Source of the DNA: a virus
Virus genome (UHGV): UHGV-0125383
Direction: 5' to 3' (one strand)
DNA length: 29,406 bases
Shown: one piece after another, positions 5,800-29,356 of the stretch
How positions within the stretch are numbered: the stretch's first letter is position 1
Layout of the letters: each line of letters starts with the position of its first letter
The notes under the pieces: model-generated
Databases searched by the model: none
What the model saw: only the letters and a program-made list of their open reading frames with translations
What the model was told of the DNA's origin: nothing
Position numbers and translations under genes: made by a program

Positions 5800-6369
5800 C
5801 TATTGTGAAGCTCTGGTTTCTTCGATTTCCCGTATTCCAGCAAAGTTATTGTTACCCTTCTCAATGACGGCCAGCAGCGGCTTAATCCAGAGAACAGCCT
5901 GGCAATATGTCAGGGTGCTGGTGGCAACGGTACGATCATCGGCTTCGTCAGGTCCGACGGAATTGGTGTGCATGGCGCTGGAACGTATACGGTTCGCGTA
6001 GTCGAGCAGCCCACCAGCAACATCATCAGGAACAGGCAGATCACAGGTTTTTTCACGTCGAAGAATCTCCCGGTATTCGATGACAGTCTTTTCGGTACCC
6101 GCATCGATCAACGAATTAAGGCGGCTGGCATTTTCTGATACCTGGTTAAAACGGTTGAAGTTGAAAGCCTGCGTCGCGATGACCTGACCCTGTAGCGCGT
6201 TATCATGCTCCAGAACGCGCTTATCGCTTTGCGCTGTGCTCAGCTCTGCCCGGTTGTTCGCCAGCAGGACACCGAGAATAGCGATAGCGCCAACGACAAT
6301 AACCACCGCGATAATTGCCAGCCACCAGCGCCATGACGTTTTCAGTGATGACAGCAGCGTCTGGATCAT
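5800..6369 (-). CDS. Rz-like i-spanin (inner-membrane spanin)
   Basis: 189-aa ORF with N-terminal transmembrane segment (WRWWLAIIAVVIVVGAIAILGVLLA) and periplasmic domain; start overlaps the endolysin stop (ATGA); contains an embedded lipoprotein ORF in another frame. Confidence 0.85.
   Translation of the reverse strand: MIQTLLSSLKTSWRWWLAIIAVVIVVGAIAILGVLLANNRAELSTAQSDKRVLEHDNALQGQVIATQAFNFNRFNQVSENASRLNSLIDAGTEKTVIEYREILRREKTCDLPVPDDVAGGLLDYANRIRSSAMHTNSVGPDEADDRTVATSTLTYCQAVLWIKPLLAVIEKGNNNFAGIREIEETRASQ
5910..6050 (-). CDS. Rz1-like o-spanin lipoprotein, embedded within the Rz gene in a different frame
   Basis: Track ORF 5910..6104. Signal peptide plus lipobox LLVGC followed by a proline-rich mature part (CSTTRTVYVPAPCTPIPSDLTKPMIVPLPPAP). 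Probable start is GTG at 6048-6050 (giving MKKPVICLFLMMLLVGC...) preceded by GGGAGA; the exact start is uncertain. Confidence 0.75.
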   Translation of the reverse strand, partial: KPVICLFLMMLLVGCSTTRTVYVPAPCTPIPSDLTKPMIVPLPPAP

Positions 6370-6860
6370 GATTCTTTTACCGAGCTGGTGCCATTCATCA
6401 ACGGTAACAGGCGGCTATCCCTCGGCTCGTTAACCGGCCAACGATAACCAGTCACGCGGGAACGCGAGAACGCACGAATATTGATGGCGTCGGACTGATT
6501 GCCTCCGAGGACCATCAGGTCACCGTTCTGGTGCTGCCCGACCACAAATCCGACATGGCCACCGCCGTCGCGACTGAATACCACCACACATCCATAGGCT
6601 GGCTCGCGAAGTTCGACGCCCCAGTTGAGATAGGATTTCGCAGACTCGAAACGGGTTGATTTGATGCCGACACGCTCGAGCATTGAGCCGACGTATGCTG
6701 CACACCAGGGGGTTTCGTCATCTTTGATTCCGGCACGGTGAATATCCTTCCAGAACTGAAGCAACAGCGGATTATGGCGCGGACCTTTAATTTCCATCTG
6801 CCCAATGTATTTACGGCCTTCCACCAGCCAGCGTGGCTCGTTACTGGTTTGCATCGTCAA
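6366..6860 (-). CDS. Putative endolysin (cysteine peptidase-like peptidoglycan hydrolase, TIGR02594-like family)
   Basis: 164-aa ORF between holin and Rz. Contains candidate catalytic Cys ([10 protein letters not shown]) and His (GGGHVGFVV); family assignment is from memory. Confidence 0.7.
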
Positions 6861-7161
6861 CTCCCGCCTTTTTGGCTGCGAATTTTTTAATCAGATTGCC
6901 GATCGAATCGGTGCCGATGTATCCAATAAAGACGCTGGCAATGTATGCGAGGTTGCTGCTCAATCCGGAGAAGTCGAGCAGGTCACGAATAAACCAGGCG
7001 ATCATCGCGCACATCAGCGCATCAATTAGCGTCTTCATCTTGGCGCCACCGTTATAGCGACCACGCAGGTACGCCATAATAAAAGCCAGCATTGCACCAA
7101 TACCCTGCTCCTTAGCGGCAAGTAGCGCAGCGATGAAATCTTGTTTGTATGGCATTTTCAT
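6841..7161 (-). CDS. Holin, lambda S family, with Met-Lys-Met dual-start motif
   Basis: Track ORF 6841..7170 starts at a GTG; the first ATG is 7159-7161 giving [39 protein letters not shown]..., which I recall as closely matching lambda S ([39 protein letters not shown]...). SD GGAGGTGAGG lies upstream. The second ATG is at 7153-7155. Confidence 0.9.
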
Positions 7162-7304
7162 AGGCCTCACCTCCGATAGTTCGGATGGCGCTGTGTGTGA
7201 TTGAAAGAGATCAGGCTTCCGGGCTCTTTTGTAAAAGTGAAAAAAGAAGGTGATTCCCGGAGCCTGAAGATGATGATCACCACAGCGGGATGACGTGATG
7301 ATCG

Positions 7305-8357
7305 TTATGTCTTATTCAGTTCGCGGATTTCCTCCACAGTCTGAATAAATCGCTCTGTTTCCAGCTCAACGCCGATTGCCCGTCGCCCAAGCGCCATAGC
7401 CGCTTTAATGGTTGAACCCGATCCCATGAAGAAATCAGCCACAACATCACCCGGCCTGCTGCTGGCGTTGATGATCTGCTGCAACATGTCTGCTGGCTTT
7501 TCGCATGGGTGTTTTCCGGGGTAAAACTGAACCGGTTTATGCGTCCAGACATCGGTGAAAGGAACAGAGACTGAAACAGAAAAGAACCGCCGGAGAGACC
7601 TATACTCTTCCAGCAATTCTGAATACTTCCGGTTCAACGAATGCCACGTGGCCACCAGCTGGTGGTGTGGTGTGTCGAGCTCATTGTTTCGATGCTTATC
7701 GAATGCAACCTGGGTGAACAGTTCCTGCAGTTTCTGGTAATCCGCTTCGCCTGGCAGTTGCCATTGAGAGGCTCCGAACCAGTGCGAGACCATGTTTTTC
7801 TTCCCGGTCGCATCGGCGATCTGCTTAGAGGAAACCCCAAGCGATTCACGCGCGTCACGGAAATACGAAATCAGCGGCGTCAGCACATGCTGTTTGAGCT
7901 CGTTACTTTTCTCTGCGTATCCATCACTCTTGGGCTTATACGGGCCCTGGTAATGTTCAGCGAAAAGAATGCGCTCAGTCGCCGGGAAATATGAACGCAG
8001 GCTTTCTTTGTTGCAGCCATTCCAGCGACCGGAAGGTTTTGCCCAGATGATGTGATTAAGGACACTGAACCGCTCCCGCATCATGATTTCAATATCAGAC
8101 GCAAGGCGATGCCCACAGAACAGATAAAGGCTACCGGCGGGTTTCAGAACGCGCCAGAACTCAGCCAGGTATCCATCAAGCCAGCGTAAAAAATCCTCGT
8201 CCCCTTTCCACTGGTTGTCCCATCCTTCAGGTTTCACCCTGAAGTAAGGTGGATCCGTAACGATAAGGTCAATGGAGTTATCAGGGAGAGAAGCGATGTA
8301 ATGCAGGGAGTCAGCGTTGATTAACTCAACACTGTTTATTTTTACAGTATTTTTCAT
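7305..8357 (-). CDS. DNA N6-adenine methyltransferase (beta-class: DPPY motif N-terminal, FxGxG C-terminal), probably orphan
   Basis: 350-aa ORF with VTDPPYF near the N-terminus and FFMGSGST near the C-terminus. No adjacent restriction endonuclease ORF. First gene of the late operon, between the late terminator and the holin. Confidence 0.8.
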
Positions 8358-8594
8358 AGATCAGTAAGCGTAACTCTGATAAGCTCACTATGCTTTTGCG
8401 CTAAAGCAGTGGGCCCTGGTTAGCTTGTGACCTGAAAGCATGAGCTGATGGCTGGCCGGGTGCTACAACACCCACCAGCCGCCCATTTTCACAGCAGATA
8501 GCCCAGGCTGTCGCTGGGCCAGTGATTGATCTTCGACGATATGACAGGGGTATTGATGCAATGCACCTCGCGAATACCCCTGTCGTATCGCCGG

Positions 8595-8620
8595 AAAGCA
8601 AAAGCCCCGACTGGCGGGGC
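8595..8620 (-). terminator. Rho-independent terminator (tR'-like) in the late-operon leader
   Basis: On the minus strand the RNA would read GCCCCG-CCAGU-CGGGGC followed by UUUUGCUUU: a perfect 6-bp GC stem, 5-nt loop and U-tract, just downstream of the putative late promoter. Confidence 0.7.
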
Positions 8621-8686
8621 TCTCGTCATAATCAAATTGTCGCTTCTCATCGCTGCCATCGTGGCGCAGCTCTGCCAAGCATAAAC

Positions 8687-8716
8687 ACATTAGCTAACTT
8701 TCTGGCCCGTTTTCAA
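8687..8716 (-). promoter_or_regulatory. Putative late promoter (PR'-like) downstream of the Q gene
   Basis: Minus-strand TTGAAA (complement of 8711-8716) and TAATGT (complement of 8687-8692) with about 18-bp spacing, between the Q stop and the terminator. Hexamers were picked by eye. Confidence 0.3.
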
Positions 8717-8764
8717 CTCTGTCAGTTAAAAATAGCACTAATAGCTAAAATATTCCTTTTGCGA

Positions 8765-9364
8765 CTATTCGGATAATAGTTTTCGTGAGGACAGAAAAAC
8801 CTTTGCTCTGAAGATTTCCAGGCACCAGCGCACTCGTTTTCTGGCCTCTCCATCAGTCAGCCAGGGCGCTATAACCTGCAATTCTCTGGTGATGTCTGAG
8901 ATTTTTTTCCTTGTGGTGTAATACTGGCATCCAACCACATAAACAGGATCGTTCAGGTCGAAAGCCTGAAGGACAGACTCCTCGACGAACTCAACATCAT
9001 CACTATTGATGGCCTCATCAATTATACTGACCTGCGGCTCGGGCCAGAGAATTAAGCGGGCCCGCCGTAACGCCTGCTCACCACGGAATCCCTCATCCCT
9101 CGCTTGATTCAACGCGACGGTAAAACGCTCGAGCGCTTTATCAGACCAGTTCCTCCCTCTGATTACGTTCCAGCATGAATGTCCGCATGGTTTTCTGGGA
9201 GCTACTCCACCGCGAACGCTTTCACCCCATACAGCGAGAAGAGATTTGATCCATCCAGACTGGATATCGGTCAGGAGCATGCTTTTCCCCAGCCAGCTTT
9301 TGCGCGGCGCTATCGCTGCCTTTTCCAGGGCTGCCCGATGCGAACGTTTTTGACGAGGTGTCAT
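8765..9364 (-). CDS. Putative late-gene antiterminator Q
   Basis: 199-aa ORF immediately upstream of the promoter/terminator pair that precedes the lysis genes, the position Q occupies in lambdoid phages. Family resemblance is from memory only; the call is mainly by synteny. Confidence 0.55.
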   Translation of the reverse strand: MTPRQKRSHRAALEKAAIAPRKSWLGKSMLLTDIQSGWIKSLLAVWGESVRGGVAPRKPCGHSCWNVIRGRNWSDKALERFTVALNQARDEGFRGEQALRRARLILWPEPQVSIIDEAINSDDVEFVEESVLQAFDLNDPVYVVGCQYYTTRKKISDITRELQVIAPWLTDGEARKRVRWCLEIFRAKVFLSSRKLLSE

Positions 9365-11614: not shown

Positions 11615-12001
11615 CTAGCAAGATGATATTTTTTCCTCAAATTTCTTGATCGAGATCTCTACTCTTCCCCCTTTCACTACTGGCCCCCACTCCACCAGCA
11701 TTCTTTTTACCTGGCTGTCGTCTTCCCAGATCCCCGCATGGGTAAGAGCGTCGAACAGCGCTTTGTTGTAGTTATCCAGATCCCGGATCCGGTTGTCCGG
11801 CGGGAACAGGATTATTTCAACAGCCGCCGGTGACGATGACGGCTTCGGGAGCATGCGCAGTTGTTCAATGATTGCCGCACATGCTGACGACTGGAACTGG
11901 CGACCTTTGGCACTTATCAGGTGACGGCCGGCAAGCGGCCCCTTGTTCGGGGCGCGCCAGTACGTGTTCACACTTGGAGGAAACGGCAGCACAAGTTTCA
12001 T
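11615..12001 (-). CDS. rusA: RusA-family Holliday junction resolvase
   Basis: 128-aa ORF with the characteristic RusA motifs LPFPPSVNTYW, RDLDNYNKALFDALT and GIWEDDSQV. Confidence 0.9.
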   Translation of the reverse strand: MKLVLPFPPSVNTYWRAPNKGPLAGRHLISAKGRQFQSSACAAIIEQLRMLPKPSSSPAAVEIILFPPDNRIRDLDNYNKALFDALTHAGIWEDDSQVKRMLVEWGPVVKGGRVEISIKKFEEKISSC

Positions 12002-12318
12002 ACCCGGATCCCCTTGTTTTTGAGATAGGCGATTGCGCGGTCCTTCGCACCATCTTCACCATTCACAAGCGCATGCAGCAGGGAATCTGCATCAGCAGCG
12101 TTCTCCGGATCGTTGATGGCAATTCCCCGCGAGACACCACGCGTCAGGGTGATAGCCCCTTTCCTCTCCAGCGCGCGCAGATGATCCGCAGCGGCATTTG
12201 GCGAACTGCATCCCAGCAGTCCCGAAAGTTCTGTATTGGTTGGAGGATAGCCATGCTCGCGTTGAAAGCTGATCAGGGTATCCAGTACATGCTGCTGGCG
12301 AGCCGTTAAGTTCATCAT
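11998..12318 (-). CDS. LexA N-terminal DNA-binding domain protein (winged HTH only, no S24 peptidase domain)
   Basis: Track ORF 11998..12345. Probable start is the ATG at 12316-12318 (MMNLTARQQHVLDTL...), preceded by AAGGAGG and overlapping the C5-methyltransferase stop (ATGA). LTARQQHVLD...GYPPTNTELSGLLGCSSPNAAADHLRALERKGAI parallels the LexA DNA-binding domain (memory). The protein ends about 105 aa without a cleavage domain. Confidence 0.7.
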   Translation of the reverse strand: MMNLTARQQHVLDTLISFQREHGYPPTNTELSGLLGCSSPNAAADHLRALERKGAITLTRGVSRGIAINDPENAADADSLLHALVNGEDGAKDRAIAYLKNKGIRV

Positions 12319-14297
12319 GCTGCCTGTTCCTCCTTGCTCACACATAGCTCTGGCAGATTGGCGCGCACCAGCGCTTCAGCGAACGGTGGCGGGACTGCAT
12401 TGCCGCAGCGCGCCACTTGCTTATCTTTGGCGTACCGCTTGCCGCGATAATCCTGATCGATGATGTACCAGTCAGGGAAGCCCTGTGCGCGGTAAAGCTC
12501 GTGCGGCTGAAGCATACGCATACCGATATCGACGATGCGGTACGTTATCCCATCGATGTCGACCATCCCGGTGCATTCCTCGCCGCAGTATTCACGTAGG
12601 AACGCCAGCGCCTGCTGTGCGCGGTGTTCGTCGTAGTCTTCGACCGCCAGAGTGGTTTTGACTTCCCCGACATGCAAGCCGCCAGCCGTAACTGTCGGCA
12701 TTGGTTCACTCGTGGGCTGACCATCGCGACAGGTGCCGCGCAGTTTTACCAGGTGAGAAGCAACCACTGCATGGTGATCGACCGTCGTCACCGAGTGGAC
12801 TGGTTCATCCAGCCCGACGCCTGGCCCCGTATAGTTGCCGCCGTAATGCTTCGCCAGAAATGCGCTGGCCACGGCGAACTTGTTACCACCAGCGGTTACC
12901 GTCCCCAGCGGCTTTTCAAGCTGCAACACACGCGGGTCCTGCCCCGGCCTTTCGCCGTAACCCATCTGGATCAACGTTGGCGTCACCAGCTGTGAATGAC
13001 CGCCGCCGCCCGCCGTAATCGTCGCACTCGGCTCGTCTGCCCGGTGACCGATGCTGGCCCCAAACTGGCGAGCGATAACCGGCGCAACCAGACAGGCACG
13101 AGACTGTTTCAGGATGGTGTGAGCGGGTTTATCCAGCGGGCGCGGCTTTGCCTGGTACTCACTGCCACCATTACCAGCCAGGAACGGTGTAAGCGCGGCC
13201 TCAACGATGCCGAGGGCATGACCATTCCCGCCCGGGCGCCGTGACGTGCCGGCGGTGATTGTCGGGACTGGTTGTGTGACATCCTGCCCTGTCGCGCCTG
13301 TTCTGAACTTCGTCAGGTGCGGCACGGCAACCGCGTAACCATGCGTTTTGGTGATTGTCTGCAGCGGTTCTTCCAGCGACTGGCCCCGGAAGCAGTCGTA
13401 ATGCGTTTTGGTGCTGGTATGGTTGCACTTCACGATAAATGGCGACGCGCTGTCGATAACGAAGCGCTGAATACCGCGCGCAATGCGCTTGAGCGTATTC
13501 ACTGCCAGGGGCTTTTTGCGGTCGAAGATCGACAGCGCGGGAATGGTCCAGTCGATACACTCCGCAGCGGTGCGCCACGGCAACAGCTTGCCAGCCTGAA
13601 CCGCCGGTAACTTCGGATCCCCGTGTGTTGGCTCCGGCCACACTATCGGTTTCCCGTCACAGCGAATAACCATGAAGAAGCGTTTTCTGATCGTCGGCGC
13701 ACCGTAATCACAGGCGCGCAGTTCGCGATACTCAACGACATAACCCAGACCTTTTACCAGTCTGGCGGCGTCCTCGCTGTCGAGAGGAATACCCAGGAAT
13801 TCACAGCACTCCACCAGCGCCGGATGATCGGGAGAAATCCCCGTCGTTAGCATAGCGACGAAAGCCTGGAAGTTTTCGCCAACACGTTCAGGATCCGGGC
13901 GCATTTCACCAGCAAGAAGCGGCCCCCACGTTCTGAACTCTTCGACGTTCTCCAGCTTCATAACACGAGGCTTAACATCAAGCCCCCAGCGCAGTGTCAC
14001 CCAGGCCAGACCGCGTATCGCTTTTTCTACGGGCTTCGCACCTTTGGCTTTCGAAAAATGACGACAATCAGGACTGAACCATGCCAGGGCAACCGGTAAC
14101 CCACCCGTCGCCGCGCGCGGATCCACTTCAAATACTGATTCGCAGTAATGGAGCGTGTCCGGGTGGTTCGTCTTGTGCATCGCGATCGCGTTCTCGTCAT
14201 GGTTGATCGCGATATCAACGCTGCGACCAATCGCCATTTCAATACCTGTTGACGCGCCACCACCACCAGCAAAGTTATCAACGATAATCTCACGCAT
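12315..14297 (-). CDS. DNA cytosine-5 methyltransferase with expanded, internally repeated variable region
   Basis: 660-aa ORF with motif I FAGGGG, catalytic PC motif (FSPDCRHFS), ENV (KLENVEEF) and C-terminal GNAVPPP. The central region carries five similar modules (PTITAGTSRRPGG, SATITAGGGGHSQ, GTVTAGGNKFAV, HSVTTVDHHAV, MPTVTAGGLHVGE). Confidence 0.85.
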   Translation of the reverse strand: MREIIVDNFAGGGGASTGIEMAIGRSVDIAINHDENAIAMHKTNHPDTLHYCESVFEVDPRAATGGLPVALAWFSPDCRHFSKAKGAKPVEKAIRGLAWVTLRWGLDVKPRVMKLENVEEFRTWGPLLAGEMRPDPERVGENFQAFVAMLTTGISPDHPALVECCEFLGIPLDSEDAARLVKGLGYVVEYRELRACDYGAPTIRKRFFMVIRCDGKPIVWPEPTHGDPKLPAVQAGKLLPWRTAAECIDWTIPALSIFDRKKPLAVNTLKRIARGIQRFVIDSASPFIVKCNHTSTKTHYDCFRGQSLEEPLQTITKTHGYAVAVPHLTKFRTGATGQDVTQPVPTITAGTSRRPGGNGHALGIVEAALTPFLAGNGGSEYQAKPRPLDKPAHTILKQSRACLVAPVIARQFGASIGHRADEPSATITAGGGGHSQLVTPTLIQMGYGERPGQDPRVLQLEKPLGTVTAGGNKFAVASAFLAKHYGGNYTGPGVGLDEPVHSVTTVDHHAVVASHLVKLRGTCRDGQPTSEPMPTVTAGGLHVGEVKTTLAVEDYDEHRAQQALAFLREYCGEECTGMVDIDGITYRIVDIGMRMLQPHELYRAQGFPDWYIIDQDYRGKRYAKDKQVARCGNAVPPPFAEALVRANLPELCVSKEEQAA

Positions 14298-15168
14298 GGG
14301 TCACCCCCTGCATGCTGCTGGCAAGACCAGAGGCAACGGCAATGATCTCGCTGGTGGGCATACGTTCAAGCCATAGCTGATTGATATTGCCTTTCAGCTT
14401 GTTCTGCTGTGACTCAGTCAGGGCGTCAACGCCATCCACCTGGTTAAACACCAGACCAACCTCGAGAGGCCAGATACGCGACTCAACTTCTGGCAATACC
14501 AGCGGCGCAGTTGGCTGTACTGCTTCTTCCTGCCGGGCCTTACCAGCGGCAAATGTGACCAGCGACATAAACGCCTTCCCTTTTTCCTCCAGATCGGCAC
14601 GGCTGATGTAGCTGAAACGCTCACCGCGCCAGGACTTGTCGAACACGGCGATTGCACCAGCAAAAAATGCGCTGGTGGGCTTTTGCTTATCGTCCAAAGG
14701 AACAAACCACACAGGGAGATCGAAGCCAATGCGACCGCGAATAAACATGATGTGATCGGCATCTTCCGGCCACCAAGTTTCGCTCGGCGCGGCTTTTATC
14801 AGGAATACATAGCGACCACCCTTTTCGCGCTGGGCTGCTGCGTAATTCATAATGTGTGTCATGCCAGTGATCGCCTGCTTCTCGTGGTACTGCGAACGGC
14901 TATACGGTGGGTTGCCATAACCTGCGCCGCCAAGTTCTGCCAGACGTTCAGACCAGTCCTGCGTCAGCGCATTATCTTCGGCGGTGTACCAGACCGGACA
15001 CTTCGCGTTATCGTCGTCAGCAAACAGATCCAGAACCAACGGCCCGAATATTGCGTTGATCCCCCAAAACAACAGATCCGGAGTACGCCATTGATCGCCA
15101 ACCTCTTTCAGTTCGTGGGCTGGTTTACTGCGCAGTTCCGCCAGCGCCTGGCAATATTTGTTTATCAT
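14290..15168 (-). CDS. Phage Dam-type DNA N6-adenine methyltransferase
   Basis: 292-aa ORF with NPPY motif (GYGNPPYSRSQ); start overlaps the replication-gene stop (TAATG) and its stop region overlaps the C5-methyltransferase start by 8 nt. Confidence 0.8.
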   Translation of the reverse strand: MINKYCQALAELRSKPAHELKEVGDQWRTPDLLFWGINAIFGPLVLDLFADDDNAKCPVWYTAEDNALTQDWSERLAELGGAGYGNPPYSRSQYHEKQAITGMTHIMNYAAAQREKGGRYVFLIKAAPSETWWPEDADHIMFIRGRIGFDLPVWFVPLDDKQKPTSAFFAGAIAVFDKSWRGERFSYISRADLEEKGKAFMSLVTFAAGKARQEEAVQPTAPLVLPEVESRIWPLEVGLVFNQVDGVDALTESQQNKLKGNINQLWLERMPTSEIIAVASGLASSMQGVTHA

Positions 15169-23625: not shown

Positions 23626-24804
23626 ATGGCGGCAAGGCCAAGAAAAAAAGAATACCGACATCTGCCGGACTATCTGGTATTTGATAAAGATCGAGGTGTT
23701 TATAAATTCACACTTATTACCGGGAAGAAGAAAAATATAGGTAAGGATCGGGCCATCGCAATAGCTATCGCCAGAGAGTACAACCTGAGGATGAGACCTG
23801 AACTTTCCCCGTCGGTTGATAATCTCATTAGAGAATCTGGTGGGGTTACTGGAGAAGCCAAACCATTTGCTGAACATGTGGATCACATAATGGAACGTGC
23901 TATTGAGGACGAGCGCCCTTCTCAGAGCACCCTGGATGACTGGAATAATGACGCACTACGCGTAAAAGAGTTTTTCGTTAATGTTCCTGCCTGCGATATC
24001 GAGTTGGAGCATGTTAACGCATACATCAATCAATACCATGCCGGCGCGTCTGCGAACGTGCAAAACAGAAAAGTCAGCTTCCTTAAAAAGCTGTTTTCGT
24101 ATGCGGTCGATGAATCCCTGATGCTCGATAATCCGGCAACCCGGAAGAAAATGCGCAGGACCGAAGAGAAGAAAAGACAACGCCTGTCGCTCGATCATTT
24201 CATGGCTATCCGGCGCGCTGCAGCACCATGGTTAAGAACGGCAATGGACCTGGCTCTACAGACGACACATGCGCGCCTCGAAGTCTCGAGGATCCGTTAT
24301 TCAATTCGCGAACCCAAAAACGGTATATGTGGTTGTGTCTGGCTCGATCAGCCAGAGAACGGTATCTATGGAACACTATACATACACCGCCAAAAGGTAC
24401 AGAAGAAGGAGGCGTCGCACGTTGCGATCCCCATAGGTGATGAGTTAAAACGCATCATTGATGATAGCCGGGATAATGTGGCCAGTCCGTATGTTGTTCA
24501 TCGGATCCCGGAACGACAGGTTAAACGGAGCAAAGAAGTCTCGCATCCCACCCAGGTGGCCCCGGATTATTTAAGCAGGTCATTCTCTGCTGTCCGCGAC
24601 AGGCTCGGGTTATGCAATCACCTCGCAATGGATGAAAGACCGACCTTCCATGAAATACGAGCTTTGGCTGCTCACCTGTTTGATAAACAGGGCATAGATC
24701 CGCAAGGCAGAATGGCGCATAGCGATGCAAAGTCTACGAAAATTTATACCCAGAATCATATAGATTGGGTGGTAGTTCCACATGGCGAAATCAGAACTGG
24801 ATGA
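23626..24804 (+). CDS. int: Tyrosine integrase, lambda Int family
   Basis: 392-aa ORF. N-terminal arm-binding-like region (KEYRHLPDYLVF) and C-terminal catalytic region (RPTFHEIRALAAHLFDKQ ... AHSDAKSTKIYT) parallel lambda Int (memory). Confidence 0.92.
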   Translation: MAARPRKKEYRHLPDYLVFDKDRGVYKFTLITGKKKNIGKDRAIAIAIAREYNLRMRPELSPSVDNLIRESGGVTGEAKPFAEHVDHIMERAIEDERPSQSTLDDWNNDALRVKEFFVNVPACDIELEHVNAYINQYHAGASANVQNRKVSFLKKLFSYAVDESLMLDNPATRKKMRRTEEKKRQRLSLDHFMAIRRAAAPWLRTAMDLALQTTHARLEVSRIRYSIREPKNGICGCVWLDQPENGIYGTLYIHRQKVQKKEASHVAIPIGDELKRIIDDSRDNVASPYVVHRIPERQVKRSKEVSHPTQVAPDYLSRSFSAVRDRLGLCNHLAMDERPTFHEIRALAAHLFDKQGIDPQGRMAHSDAKSTKIYTQNHIDWVVVPHGEIRTG

Positions 24805-26324: not shown

Positions 26325-26372
26325 GTCATGGGGTGTCGGGGGTCGGAGGTTCAAATCCTCTCGTGCCGACCA
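26325..26372 (+). tRNA. Partial tRNA-Pro gene: 3' 48 nt only (T-arm, acceptor 3' strand, CCA); att-core relic, not a functional tRNA
   Basis: GTCATGGGGTGTCGGGGGTCGGAGGTTCAAATCCTCTCGTGCCGACCA matches, from memory, the 3' part of enterobacterial proL (tRNA-Pro GGG). The 77 nt ending at 26372 cannot form an acceptor stem (5' side reads GGAGCGA, not CGGCACG), so the 5' half is absent. Confidence 0.7.
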
Positions 26373-26383
26373 AAATTCCCCAG

Positions 26384-26414
26384 AAAAACCAGCCTTTTAC
26401 GGCTGGTTTTTTTT
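26384..26414 (+). terminator. Bidirectional rho-independent terminator just 3' of the tRNA fragment
   Basis: AAAAA-CCAGCC-TTTTAC-GGCTGG-TTTTTTTT. Confidence 0.75.
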
Positions 26415-26505
26415 ATTATTGCCGTCCACCGAAATGGAATTCGATTCGAGTTATGGACGGAAATAATGTTACACTTCCGGTTTTGCACAGCCGATCTTAT
26501 TGCTT

Positions 26506-26868
26506 ATGTGGCATCACTTCATCAAGTACACCTCCGTAGGCGTGATCAACACATTGATTCACTGGATAGTTTTTGCTATCTGCATCTACGCCTTTCATAC
26601 CCATCAGGCGCTGGCGAATTTCCTGGGCTTCAGTGTGGCGGTCAGTTTTTCTTTTTACGCCAACGCCCGGTTTACCTTTAAGCAATCGACCACAACGCGT
26701 CGCTATCTGCTGTATGTCGGCTTTATGGGCCTGCTCAGTATCCTGACGGGTTGGGGGGCCGAACAGTGCGGTTTCCCACCGCTGGTGACGCTGGTCGCGT
26801 TCTCCGCCATTAGTCTCATTTGTGGCTTTATTTATTCCAGATTCATTGTATTCAAGGACGCACGATGA
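26506..26868 (+). CDS. gtrA: GtrA, bactoprenol-linked glucose translocase (flippase)
   Basis: Track ORF 26500..26868 starts at a TTG; the ATG at 26506 gives a 120-aa product [20 protein letters not shown]... closely resembling P22 GtrA (memory). Its stop overlaps the gtrB start (ATGA). Confidence 0.9.
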
Positions 26869-27812
26869 AAATTTCACTGGTCGTTCCTGTCTTCAACGAA
26901 GAAGAAACCATTGGCCTCTTTTACAAGACGGTGCGTGAATACGACGCACTGAAAGAACATGATGTCGAAATTGTGTTCATCAACGATGGTAGCACCGACG
27001 CAACGGAATCCATCATCAACGCCCTCGCCGTCGCCGACCCACTCGTTGTTCCGCTCTCGTTTACGCGAAATTTTGGTAAAGAACCGGCGCTGCTCGCCGG
27101 GCTCGACAATGCCAGTGGCGATGCCGTCATTCCGATGGATGTCGATCTCCAGGATCCTGTCGAAGTCCTGCCGCACTTGATTCAAAAATGGCAGGATGGG
27201 GCGGACATCGTGCTGGCTAAGCGTTCCGATCGCTCCGTCGATAGCCGCCTGAAGCGAAAATCCGCCGAGTGGTTTTATAAGCTACACAATAAAATCAGCA
27301 CGCCGCATATCGAAGAAAACGTCGGCGATTTTCGGCTGATGAGTCGTGAAGTGGTGGACAACATTAAACAAATGCCAGAACGAAATCTGTTCATGAAAGG
27401 GATTTTATCCTGGGTTGGCGGCAAAACTGACATCGTCCTCTACGCGCGCGCCACTCGCTGTGCCGGGAAAAGTAAATTCAACGGCTGGAAACTGTGGAAC
27501 CTTGCACTGGAAGGGATCACCTCTTTTTCTACCTTCCCTCTGCGTATCTGGACCTACATTGGTCTGGCGGTTGCCCTGCTTTCTTTCACCTACGGTGCAG
27601 GAATGGTGATAGATACGCTTCTGTGGGGAAATCCCGTGCGTGGCTATTCTTCCTTGATTGTGTCAATCCTGTTTCTGGGAGGCGTACAGCTTATTGGCAT
27701 TGGCGTGCTGGGTGAGTATATCGGACGAATCTATGTCGAAACCAAGCAGCGGCCTCGATACATTCTGAAAAAACGTAAAACTGTGGACCACGATTCAGAC
27801 AAGGATAACTGA
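26865..27812 (+). CDS. gtrB: GtrB, bactoprenol glucosyltransferase (GT2 family)
   Basis: Track ORF 26820..27812; the real start is the ATG at 26865 ([25 protein letters not shown]...), near-identical in character to phage GtrB (memory). 315 aa with C-terminal transmembrane segments. Confidence 0.95.
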
Positions 27813-29356
27813 TGTTAAAGCATGTTAATAAAAGCATTCTTTTAATTGCCTTTTTTGCAGTATTTATCCTGGAGTGGTTCACCCCTATTCACTCCGATGA
27901 TTACCGTTATGCCCTGCTTGGCATCTCATTTGATGCGCACCTGCATCACTACCTGACCTGGAGCGGGCGCATAGTGGCTGATTTTGTCAGCTCGCTTTTA
28001 CTCGCCACCGGATCTCGTGGATTTATCTCAACCATGACCGGCCTTGTCGTCGTTGCGTTCTGCTATTTCATTGTGAAAACGCCGACGGGCACGCTGAAAT
28101 GGAAAAAACATGACGCGCTGATCTTTACCCTTATTTTTCTGACCTTTTGGGTCGCTAACCCGAATATCGGACAAACGGTTTTCTGGATAGTCGGCAGCGC
28201 GAACTACCTGTGGACGAATCTGTTCGTCGCCGCATGGCTCTGGAACCTGTACCGCATACAGCTTCAGCGTGAAGAGCGTACACACATGGGTATGCTGTTG
28301 CTCGGGCTGTTGGCGGGCTGTTCCAATGAAAGCGTCGCGCCATTTGTCGTGGGTCTTGCCCTTCTGGCTATCGTGTACGATTACTGGCAAGCGAAACGCG
28401 TCTTTGCGAATAAGGTCGCGTATTTTTTGTCCGCACTGGTGGGCGCCAGTATTTTGATTTTCTCACCAGGCAATTTTATTCGCGCTCAGGGCGCTCATAC
28501 CGTCTGGTATGATAAATCGATCGTTGAAAGAATCACAATTCATCTGAGCGAGCGCTTCTTTAACCACCTGGCGCTGGTCTGGATTTCTTATGTCGTACTG
28601 GTCTTACTGGCAATGCTTCTGATCGTGGCCAAACGACAAGGCCATCGCATTAAAAGTGCGAATCTCAACATGGTCGGCTTAATGCTGTTGGTGGGGCTGG
28701 GAACCTCTTTAATTATGGTGGCCTCCCCGTCGTATCCTGACCGCGTCATGCTGTCGACATTTTTATTTTTCCTGCTTGCCCTCTCGTTCCTTGCACGGGA
28801 AGTCGTCACGGTAGCCGGACCACGTGTCATGAAAGGAGTCTATGTCGTTACGGGCCTGATGGCTGCGGTATTCATCTGGTCATACGCGTTAATGTATGCC
28901 GCTTACACGCGCGTTTATGAGCAGGATGTTGTTCGTGTGAATATCGTTAAGCGCCAACTCAGCCAGGGTCACAAGGACTTTACGGTGCCTGACTTCCACT
29001 TCCTGAAAATGCAAAACAGCGGAGGGCATTTCGGTTTCTTTCACGATCCGCAGGTCTATGGCCGTTATTTTGCCGCAGGGAATGTGGCGAAGAAAAAAGT
29101 TAACTTCGACTACTCCGTACTCGTCAACGGTAAGCAGCAAACCATCGATGACAATACCGTGGCCTGGTTCAATCACCGCGGTGATTTAATGCTGGTGAGC
29201 AAGCATCCATTAACCGGTACCGTGCAGGTGAAGACCGAATCGTCCGATACGTCGCGCTCGCTTACGCGCTTTACCGCCGCGAAAATTAACGATGAATACT
29301 GGTATTTCAGCGCCATACCTAAAGCAGAAGTGACTCACGTCGCGCTGCTGCCCTGA
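27812..29356 (+). CDS. gtrC: GtrC-type serotype-specific O-antigen glucosyltransferase (polytopic membrane protein)
   Basis: 514-aa multi-pass membrane ORF whose start overlaps the gtrB stop (TGATG); third gene of the gtr operon. Specificity cannot be inferred from sequence. Confidence 0.65.
   Translation: MLKHVNKSILLIAFFAVFILEWFTPIHSDDYRYALLGISFDAHLHHYLTWSGRIVADFVSSLLLATGSRGFISTMTGLVVVAFCYFIVKTPTGTLKWKKHDALIFTLIFLTFWVANPNIGQTVFWIVGSANYLWTNLFVAAWLWNLYRIQLQREERTHMGMLLLGLLAGCSNESVAPFVVGLALLAIVYDYWQAKRVFANKVAYFLSALVGASILIFSPGNFIRAQGAHTVWYDKSIVERITIHLSERFFNHLALVWISYVVLVLLAMLLIVAKRQGHRIKSANLNMVGLMLLVGLGTSLIMVASPSYPDRVMLSTFLFFLLALSFLAREVVTVAGPRVMKGVYVVTGLMAAVFIWSYALMYAAYTRVYEQDVVRVNIVKRQLSQGHKDFTVPDFHFLKMQNSGGHFGFFHDPQVYGRYFAAGNVAKKKVNFDYSVLVNGKQQTIDDNTVAWFNHRGDLMLVSKHPLTGTVQVKTESSDTSRSLTRFTAAKINDEYWYFSAIPKAEVTHVALLP

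Follow-up and report, generated by a model that had tools for sequence, protein, structure and literature searches.

The minus-strand gene at positions 7305–8357 of the virus genome UHGV-0125383, whose whole 29,406-nucleotide (nt) stretch is referred to here as the window, is identified by its sequence as an orthologue of M.EcoGII—that is, as a new member of a long-known family of adenine methyltransferases, standing in its usual genomic place as the first gene of the late operon. The gene is preceded by a conserved structured leader that is apparently new, the rest of the locus being of an already known kind. The methyltransferase is likely to be silent in the lysogen behind the terminator tR′ and, after antitermination, to be made late and to place heavy, non-specific N6-methyladenine (m6A) on progeny DNA before packaging, thereby providing broad anti-restriction. 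The finding adds one orthologue of a well-known enzyme in the usual place, in a phage group that stacks three methyltransferases. In addition, the layout offers a concrete genomic explanation for the silence of M.EcoGII-type enzymes in lysogens, which was left open by the original enzyme paper.

The open reading frame (ORF) of 350 amino acids (aa) is intact and starts with ATG. Its product matches the Pfam family PF01555 (N6_N4_Mtase) over residues 29–337 (E = 4e-44; 151.6 bits against a cut-off of 26.7), the PADLOC type II methyltransferase model (E = 5e-148), and methyltransferase families of PHROG. The motifs DPPY (residues 35–38), HPCEKP (283–288), and FMGSG (310–314) occur in the order of the beta class, with an N-terminal DPPY, a predicted central recognition domain, and a C-terminal FxGxG. 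The first-pass annotation of the window had proposed a beta-class N6-adenine methyltransferase at this place and had raised the possibility of a catalytically dead late gene; the former proposal was borne out, and the latter possibility finds no support in the motifs for catalysis and S-adenosylmethionine (AdoMet) binding, both of which are intact. The score against the YhdJ/M.EcoKII equivalog (NF008572) was 107.6 bits, below the cut-off of 292. For sequence relatives in the PDB (8urk/9c3u, M.RsrI, CcrM, and M.MboIIA), alignment is confined to the two Rossmann halves at the N and C termini, and none of them provides a solved structure covering residues ~115–280.

A full-length comparison with M.EcoGII gave 271 identical residues out of 348 (78%, with 89% positives and two single-residue gaps), an identity that is a lower bound because the reference sequence was taken from a supplement of PMC11551740 converted by optical character recognition. 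The window protein is 87% identical to Anc291, a reconstructed ancestor, and 72% identical to SUPREM. Because M.EcoGII and SUPREM themselves share only 71% identity, the protein falls within the span of tested enzymes, and all three of these were found to methylate DNA in vitro (PMC11551740, Table S3). M.EcoGII methylates adenine whatever the surrounding sequence (PMC5778455), and nanopore data, obtained on RNA, showed M.EcoGII and its variants to be largely non-sequence-specific (PMC11551740); the window orthologue would be expected to methylate adenine irrespective of sequence context as well. Like M.EcoGII of Escherichia coli O104:H4 C227-11 (and M.EcoGI), the window enzyme is prophage-borne, shows the beta-class motif order, and is of nearly the same length (350 vs 349 aa). 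Unlike M.EcoGII, it comes from another host lineage, with a gene only ~79% identical in DNA sequence to the E. coli copies, and 30% of its recognition-domain residues are changed.

M.EcoGII is not expressed in the lysogen, and its constitutive expression slows growth; the enzyme was presumed to be switched on at induction and so to defeat restriction (PMC5778455). The words "holin," "lysis," and "late" do not occur in the text of that paper, nor is the position of the gene relative to Q or the lysis genes mentioned there, and no description of the natural expression control of M.EcoGII was found in the searchable literature. In the window, the position of the gene behind a late terminator, further hairpins, and a structured leader would account for the silence of these toxic enzymes in lysogens.

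The late-promoter region was examined by folding and by aligning the window with three phages of the same Q type, namely ZF40, Chris1, and ST64B. A pR′-like promoter lies just after a gene for a Q-like putative antiterminator (Table 1), and its TTGAAA element and spacing do not vary among the four aligned phages. The ~85 nt that follow are strongly conserved, and this transcribed, promoter-proximal leader holds an internal hairpin (GCUGC..GCAGC). The intrinsic terminator lies ~70–85 nt downstream of the −10 element (free energy of folding, dG, −18.3 kcal/mol; z = −2.9) and is kept in ZF40, Chris1, and ST64B, with differences in the stem that preserve pairing. The whole segment 8544–8716—promoter, promoter-proximal leader, terminator, and a 40-nt hairpin—is common to ZF40 and Chris1 and in part to ST64B, and together with the shared Q-like protein it would be well suited to the definition of a new Q/qut type.

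No tRNA genes of the kind found in Stx phages, and no credible ORF, were found between the Q-like gene and the methyltransferase gene (8358–8764). A 75-aa ORF at 8463–8690 was rejected as a gene: it overlaps the promoter, the terminator, and the structured leader, and close relatives have a different sequence in this region. The methyltransferase gene is the first gene of the late operon. The Q-like protein matches phrog_753, "anti-termination protein Q-like" (E = 2.8e-59), and its homologues, with 45–75% identity, stand in the same position after DUF968/YdfU in Chris1, ZF40, and ST64B. Hence, of the earlier claim that this is the first gene transcribed from a Q-dependent late promoter, the conserved promoter and terminator and the first position stood, and "Q" is to be read as Q-like, by membership of a remote-homology family.

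Like PR′–6S RNA–tR′ of lambda and like StxS, the region has a promoter that directly follows the antiterminator gene and gives a short conserved transcript ending at an intrinsic terminator; it shows no sequence similarity to them and has extra conserved hairpins after the terminator. Two features of a lambdoid Q-dependent late operon are seen in the window: a promoter with a close terminator, and lysis and head genes that follow downstream in the same orientation. Transcription from PR′ of Stx phages is constitutive, and in lysogens it is terminated a short way downstream (PMC7547250).

Relatives of the methyltransferase gene were found by DNA and protein searches in SfV (orf48), cdtI (orf56), mEp460, phiNP (as "dam"), Eeyore, Hafnia phage yong2, Klebsiella Kpn74, and Stx2c/Stx2a phages. 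The gene is present in ~1,113 of 5,426 complete E. coli genomes, in at least 600 viral contigs, and in species-representative genomes across Enterobacterales. Every annotated lambdoid example shows the order DUF968–Q–(small ORF)–methyltransferase–holin, and Q–methyltransferase–holin is found in SfV, cdtI, phiNP, Eeyore, yong2, and PhiR46_1; the Q–methyltransferase–lysis arrangement, which is annotated in mEp460 and Stx2 phages as well, has long been on record and is common. The first-pass annotation had placed the gene upstream of S-R-Rz, in the slot that carries stxAB in Stx phages. Both statements agree with what was found: holin, endolysin, and Rz/Rz1 genes follow downstream on the same strand, the Stx2a phage EH2201 has the order ydfU–Q–orf–methyltransferase–tRNAs–stx2AB, and in a 2025 survey 71% of porcine Stx2e strains had a methyltransferase gene immediately before stx2e (PMC12571312). 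Stx-converting lambdoid phages carry stxAB in this same late-leader slot (Q–PR′–tR′–cargo–S R Rz), which several Stx2 phages fill with tRNAs and stx alongside this methyltransferase and its leader. As with stxAB, expression of the window gene is expected to depend on antitermination; unlike stxAB, the cargo acts on phage DNA and not on an animal host, and the Q type of the window (ST64B Sb49-like) is not among the studied Q proteins.

The window carries two further methyltransferase genes, for a Dam-type and a C5-cytosine enzyme. The same trio occurs in Citrobacter phage phiNP (loci L001/L378) and Pectobacterium phage ZF40 (L368/L377), with the Dam-type and C5 genes next to each other among the early genes and the M.EcoGII-type gene after Q; in ZF40, the late methyltransferase is followed by an integrase, not by lysis genes. 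Because the trio recurs in phiNP and ZF40, the three-methyltransferase set is a trait of a phage group and not of this genome alone.

In the sequence of events proposed here, Q-dependent read-through, late timing, anti-restriction benefit, and leader role are all inferred. The promoter just after the Q-like gene would fire into the intrinsic terminator ~80 nt downstream, and with one or two further hairpins before the gene, little or no transcript would reach the methyltransferase in the lysogen. After induction, the Q-like protein would make RNA polymerase read through the terminators; the methyltransferase would then be expressed along with the genes for lysis and the head, and replicating phage DNA would be heavily methylated just before packaging. 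Progeny DNA would enter the next host protected against most restriction enzymes with adenine in their site. The Dam-type and C5 enzymes, encoded in the early/replication region, would add marks earlier in the cycle, and the structured leader, combined with the lack of a normally spaced Shine-Dalgarno sequence, may provide an additional post-transcriptional check on a dangerous enzyme.

Broad anti-restriction had been suggested in the first-pass annotation on the strength of three methyltransferases without a restriction enzyme. The benefit itself is still a deduction, and the reading is stronger than was then supposed, because M.EcoGII has no sequence specificity. That annotation had also held that methylation of one and the same motif by all three enzymes would tell against the idea, a consideration that does not really apply to an M.EcoGII-type enzyme.

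Several points weigh against late, non-specific, protective methylation. With regard to control, the Q-like protein has no Pfam or NCBIfam match, and no experimentally studied member of its family was found; a generic promoter/terminator consensus scan found no promoter and missed the terminator, and no Q-binding or pause element was identified. With regard to benefit, anti-restriction is only proposed even for M.EcoGII (PMC5778455), and heavy m6A would sensitize the phage to m6A-dependent type IV nucleases. With regard to the enzyme, the specificity could in principle be narrowed by the divergence of 22% (30% within the recognition domain), and RefSeq names relatives "site-specific DNA-methyltransferase," which is an automatic name.

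These last two points would suit a sequence-specific orphan methyltransferase with a diverged recognition domain and a defined motif, acting against one or a few restriction systems or serving an epigenetic or regulatory role, and most PF01555 members (M.RsrI, CcrM, and M.MboIIA, for example) are indeed specific. However, the window protein is nearer to M.EcoGII and Anc291 than those are to SUPREM. The target recognition domain (amino acids 160–237) retains 55 of 78 residues of M.EcoGII (70%), its helix-turn-helix segment being nearly unchanged. An AlphaFold model shows the recognition domain of the M.EcoGII family to be a four-helix bundle with a helix-turn-helix (PMC11551740), and the identity over this segment suggests the same architecture in the window protein. 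Narrowed specificity is accordingly judged to be distinctly improbable.

Still less probable, and judged to be very unlikely, is that the main target in the late phase is RNA, with host or phage RNA being methylated and its translation or stability altered during lysis. Two papers do report that M.EcoGII can methylate riboadenosine (rA) in vitro, both within RNA and within DNA:RNA hybrids (PMC5778455; PMC11551740), but the RNA activity is ~100-fold below the DNA activity (PMC11551740, Table S3). Furthermore, residue 179 of the window protein is Q, as in M.EcoGII, and not the E179 found important for the RNA activity of SUPREM (PMC11551740), and the presence of Dam-type and C5 DNA enzymes alongside it favors a role in protecting DNA. 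Non-specific methylation of phage DNA is retained as the preferred reading of the enzyme.

The structured leader stands between the late hairpins and the start codon of the methyltransferase gene. DNA similarity to distant phages begins ~140 nt before that codon, including in cases with a different Q and a different small ORF. The leader consists of two covariation-supported hairpins and the invariant motifs AAAUGGGCG, RAACC..GGCCCA, and GAGCYUA, which are single-stranded. Compensatory changes in the stems are evident, as exemplified by the first hairpin, which is formed by GGCUGGUGGGUG/CACCCGGCCAGCC in the window, GCUACAGCAUG/CAUGCUGUAGC in Kpn74, and GCAGGACAAG/CUUGUCCUGC in PhiR46_1. Plain MAFFT alignments given to RNAalifold yielded unstable structures, with stems of unequal length being misaligned; a covariance model (R1) with a homogeneous seed, ten similar sequences and the two clear hairpins only, was used instead. 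With filters off, R1 scored 143 bits at 8376–8492, its only significant match in the window. Each matching locus has one significant match, which ends ~18–25 nt before the methyltransferase start.

R1 matched 74 of the 78 viral or phage loci and 58 of the 71 bacterial-genome loci searched. Genera bearing the leader include Enterobacter, Klebsiella, Citrobacter, Kluyvera, Buttiauxella, Erwinia, Pantoea, Serratia, Providencia, Hafnia, Rahnella, and Ewingella; by locus number, it is found in L001–L008 and in most loci of L009–L120, L138–L165, and L288–L357. Among the loci searched, it is absent from Xenorhabdus, Aeromonas, and a group of AT-rich relatives taken to be Pasteurellaceae-like. No Rfam 15 family matched at the leader at E ≤ 1, either in the window or in five divergent loci.

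Pairing was scored in two independent alignments, A5 and A7, which were fitted to the R1 model and so favor the structure, although the raw sequences show the same. In A5, 91.7% of cells are paired and 18 of 25 pairs are changed on both sides; the corresponding values for A7 are 92.3% and 19 of 25. With the partners slid, pairing fell to 29–46% in both alignments, and 0 of 500 shuffles reached the covariation score of either.

Association with the methyltransferase gene is strict. A degenerate pattern scan of the viral contigs gave 121 matches, of which 33 were chance matches in unrelated sequence and 88 were element-like; all 88 of the latter have the methyltransferase downstream at a fixed distance. 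A leader without a methyltransferase was never found in the loci and contigs scanned. Chris1 and ST64B, with the same Q, promoter, and terminator, have neither the methyltransferase nor the leader, and ZF40, in which the methyltransferase lacks lysis genes downstream, retains a divergent copy of the leader. Because of these cases, it is the methyltransferase, not the late promoter, to which the leader is assigned.

On balance, opinion is evenly divided on whether the leader is a new cis-regulatory RNA of M.EcoGII-type genes across Enterobacterales, gating translation, processing, or stability and taking the place of the Com protein that serves mom of phage Mu and is present in some relatives (see below); translation control and RNA processing are the best guesses for its function. 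By eye, none of the leader variants has a Shine-Dalgarno sequence at normal spacing before the methyltransferase start. Two GCYCAY sites lie downstream of the invariant AAUGGGC, which can pair with either one. For AUGGGC and the proximal partner (GCUCAU), only one-sided, wobble-compatible changes were seen, no better than in shuffles, and the distal partner (GCCCA) never varies. A leader peptide starting at the AUG in AAAUGGGCG was considered and rejected, the ORFs, as read by eye, being of 7, 10, or 33+ codons with no conserved stop, frame, or Shine-Dalgarno sequence. M.EcoGII is a widely used reagent, and the leader of this gene family is directly testable.

A hairpin with a T-run ends 12–19 nt before the leader in 96 of 138 distinct upstream contexts. 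In Providencia-type loci (L333–L339, L343, L351, L203, and L222), the leader comes directly after an upstream stop codon, with no terminator-like hairpin.

The leader might instead act at the level of DNA, as a module boundary—a recombination "linker" by which the methyltransferase cassette would pass from one lambdoid late region to another, or the target of a DNA-binding protein. It is the gene, and not the Q type, that the element accompanies in every case; L014 and L288 hold an extra partial copy, in L014 at the edge of an inserted gene; hairpin loops are often palindromic; and G–U cells (56 and 52) barely exceed A–C cells (47 and 32), so that strand and RNA nature are unproven. However, linkers need sequence identity, whereas here most pairs have changed on both sides and are still paired, the stem sequences are wholly different between clades, and the element lies within the transcribed leader in every case. 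A DNA-level role is consequently considered unlikely, though it is to be taken more seriously than either alternative view of the enzyme.

The extra partial copies (L014:2028-2094 and L288:1528-1594) comprise the first hairpin only, lie ~840 nt upstream of the full copy, and have their own terminator before them. In L014, the two copies flank an inserted hypothetical gene of ~130–160 aa. The leader may be a place at which cargo of the late region is inserted or recombined.

In five relatives (L119, at 2829–2939, and L120, L153, L161, and L242), a 36-aa ORF for a zinc ribbon like Mu Com lies between the leader and the methyltransferase gene (PF10122, 24.6 bits against a cut-off of 22.9). In L119 and L120, the methyltransferase start is UUG, with its AGGAGG within a hairpin (by eye). 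No Com-like ORF is present in 8358–8764 of the window. In Mu, mom is paired with the translational activator Com, and com-linked non-specific methyltransferases (Hin1523, Hia5, and Nma1821) are known from Mu-like prophages (PMC3299994). The resemblance to com-mom would consist of a toxic, broad adenine-modifying enzyme that is made late only and is under extra post-transcriptional control (PMC3299994); unlike the window enzyme of the beta class, Mom has an acyltransferase fold and the Hia5 group is of the alpha class. Because the Com-like ORFs in relatives mirror com-mom, the comparison suggests that M.EcoGII-type enzymes may generally be under post-transcriptional restraint.

Table 1. Features of the window around the methyltransferase gene and in its early region.
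Feature	Position	Strand	Evidence or score
Rz spanin, with embedded Rz1 (5910-6104)	5800..6369	-	phrog_214, E 3e-53
Endolysin, TIGR02594 / CHAP-like	6366..6860	-	profile matches
Lambda-S-type holin, MKM dual start	6841..7161	-	PF05106, E 2.5e-29
Two stable hairpins between methyltransferase stop and holin	7195..7300	-	dG -35.5 kcal/mol, z -5.4
M.EcoGII-family beta-class N6-adenine methyltransferase, 350 aa	7305..8357	-	PF01555, M.EcoGII identity
Structured 5′ leader of methyltransferase gene, ~117 nt	8376..8492	-	covariance model, covariation
Second hairpin, weak terminator-like, directly 5′ of methyltransferase leader	8499..8521	-	dG -15.7 kcal/mol
Conserved post-terminator hairpin, ACAGGGGTATT ... 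AATACCCCTGT	8544..8583	-	near-identical in window, ZF40, Chris1
Intrinsic terminator (tR′ analogue), GCCCCG-CCAGU-CGGGGC then UUUUGCUUU	8595..8620	-	folding and conservation
pR′-like promoter: -35 TTGAAA (8716-8711), 17-18 nt spacer, -10-like CTAATG/TAATGT (8693-8687)	8687..8716	-	conservation and position only
Q-like putative late antiterminator, 199 aa, ST64B Sb49 / ZF40 gp25 type	8765..9364	-	phrog_753
Small regulator annotated as transcriptional repressor	11998..12345	-	phrog_362
C5-cytosine methyltransferase, 660 aa, expanded variable region	12315..14297	-	PF00145
Dam-type phage N6-adenine methyltransferase, 292 aa, early/replication region	14290..15168	-	TIGR01712, PF05869

The other two methyltransferases named by the first-pass annotation were both recovered. 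The Dam-type enzyme matches TIGR01712 (202.2 bits; cut-off 97.05) and PF05869 (Dam; 144.5 bits; cut-off 28.1; E = 3e-42) and has NPPY at about residue 86. Its gene is overlapped by 8 nt by that of the C5 enzyme, which matches PF00145 (E = 2e-19; 70.4 bits; cut-off 22) and carries the core motifs I (FAGGGG), IV (SPDCRHFS, with the catalytic Cys), VI (ENV), VIII (APTIRKR), IX (RMLQPHELYRAQGFP), and X (GNAVPPP). No restriction enzyme was detected either, again in line with that annotation: Pfam and PADLOC scans of the remaining ORFs of the 29.4-kb window, with the tail region lying outside, showed no restriction endonuclease or other defense protein, and the nuclease-type proteins found were only the packaging HNH protein and a DUF968/HNH protein.

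The variable region of the C5 enzyme (residues ~300–560) holds seven tandem units of ~35 aa, each with [DEKQ][EKQ]PxxT[IV]T[AK]; self-BLAST of the protein showed no significant repeat. Homologues with two to six such motifs are found in phiNP, ZF40, and Rhizobium, Pseudomonas, Ralstonia, and Pseudoalteromonas phages. By length, there are two motifs in the 474-aa homologue of phage C5a, six in that of phiNP (575 aa), seven in the window enzyme (660 aa), and three to five in those of ZF40, Epa33, RR1-A, and a Ralstonia phage (692–717 aa), the strict pattern possibly undercounting divergent units in the longer proteins. Bacillus-phage C5 enzymes array several target-recognizing domains in one polypeptide (EcoSal Plus review). 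The tandem T[IV]T units of variable copy number are reminiscent of these multispecific enzymes (SPR, phi3T, and rho11s), to which the window enzyme has no sequence relationship. The units are possibly a candidate array of target-recognizing domains; alternatively, the repeat could be purely structural.

Downstream of the methyltransferase gene, none of 200 shuffles was as stable as the hairpins at 7195–7300, and the SfV annotation has a putative terminator at the equivalent place. The holin start, GGAGG followed by ATG AAA ATG (7153–7161), has the dual-start arrangement of lambda S107/S105 for antiholin and holin; independent gene calls give 106 aa, and a mechanically listed GTG start at 7170 is probably unused. 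The embedded Rz1 ORF carries a lipobox-like LLVGC. After Rz/Rz1, genes for an HNH protein, TerS, TerL, portal, and prohead protease follow on the same strand. Upstream of the Q-like gene are genes for DUF968/HNH (YdfU-like), an ORF6N antirepressor, and RusA, and farther upstream lie the C5 and Dam-type methyltransferase genes, replication genes, and genes for CII-like and Cro-like proteins and an S24 repressor, all genes in this part of the window being on the minus strand.

Because of its gene content, including an integrase and a gtrABC-like cassette, the window is probably an SfV/ST64B-like serotype-converting lambdoid prophage. The plus strand (23626–24804 and 26328–29356) encodes the integrase, then a DUF4760 gene, then a three-gene cassette consisting of a 117-aa ORF with no Pfam match, a family-2 glycosyltransferase, and a DUF6056 protein. 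By its layout, this cassette resembles gtrABC for O-antigen modification, and the prophage is probably serotype-converting like SfV.

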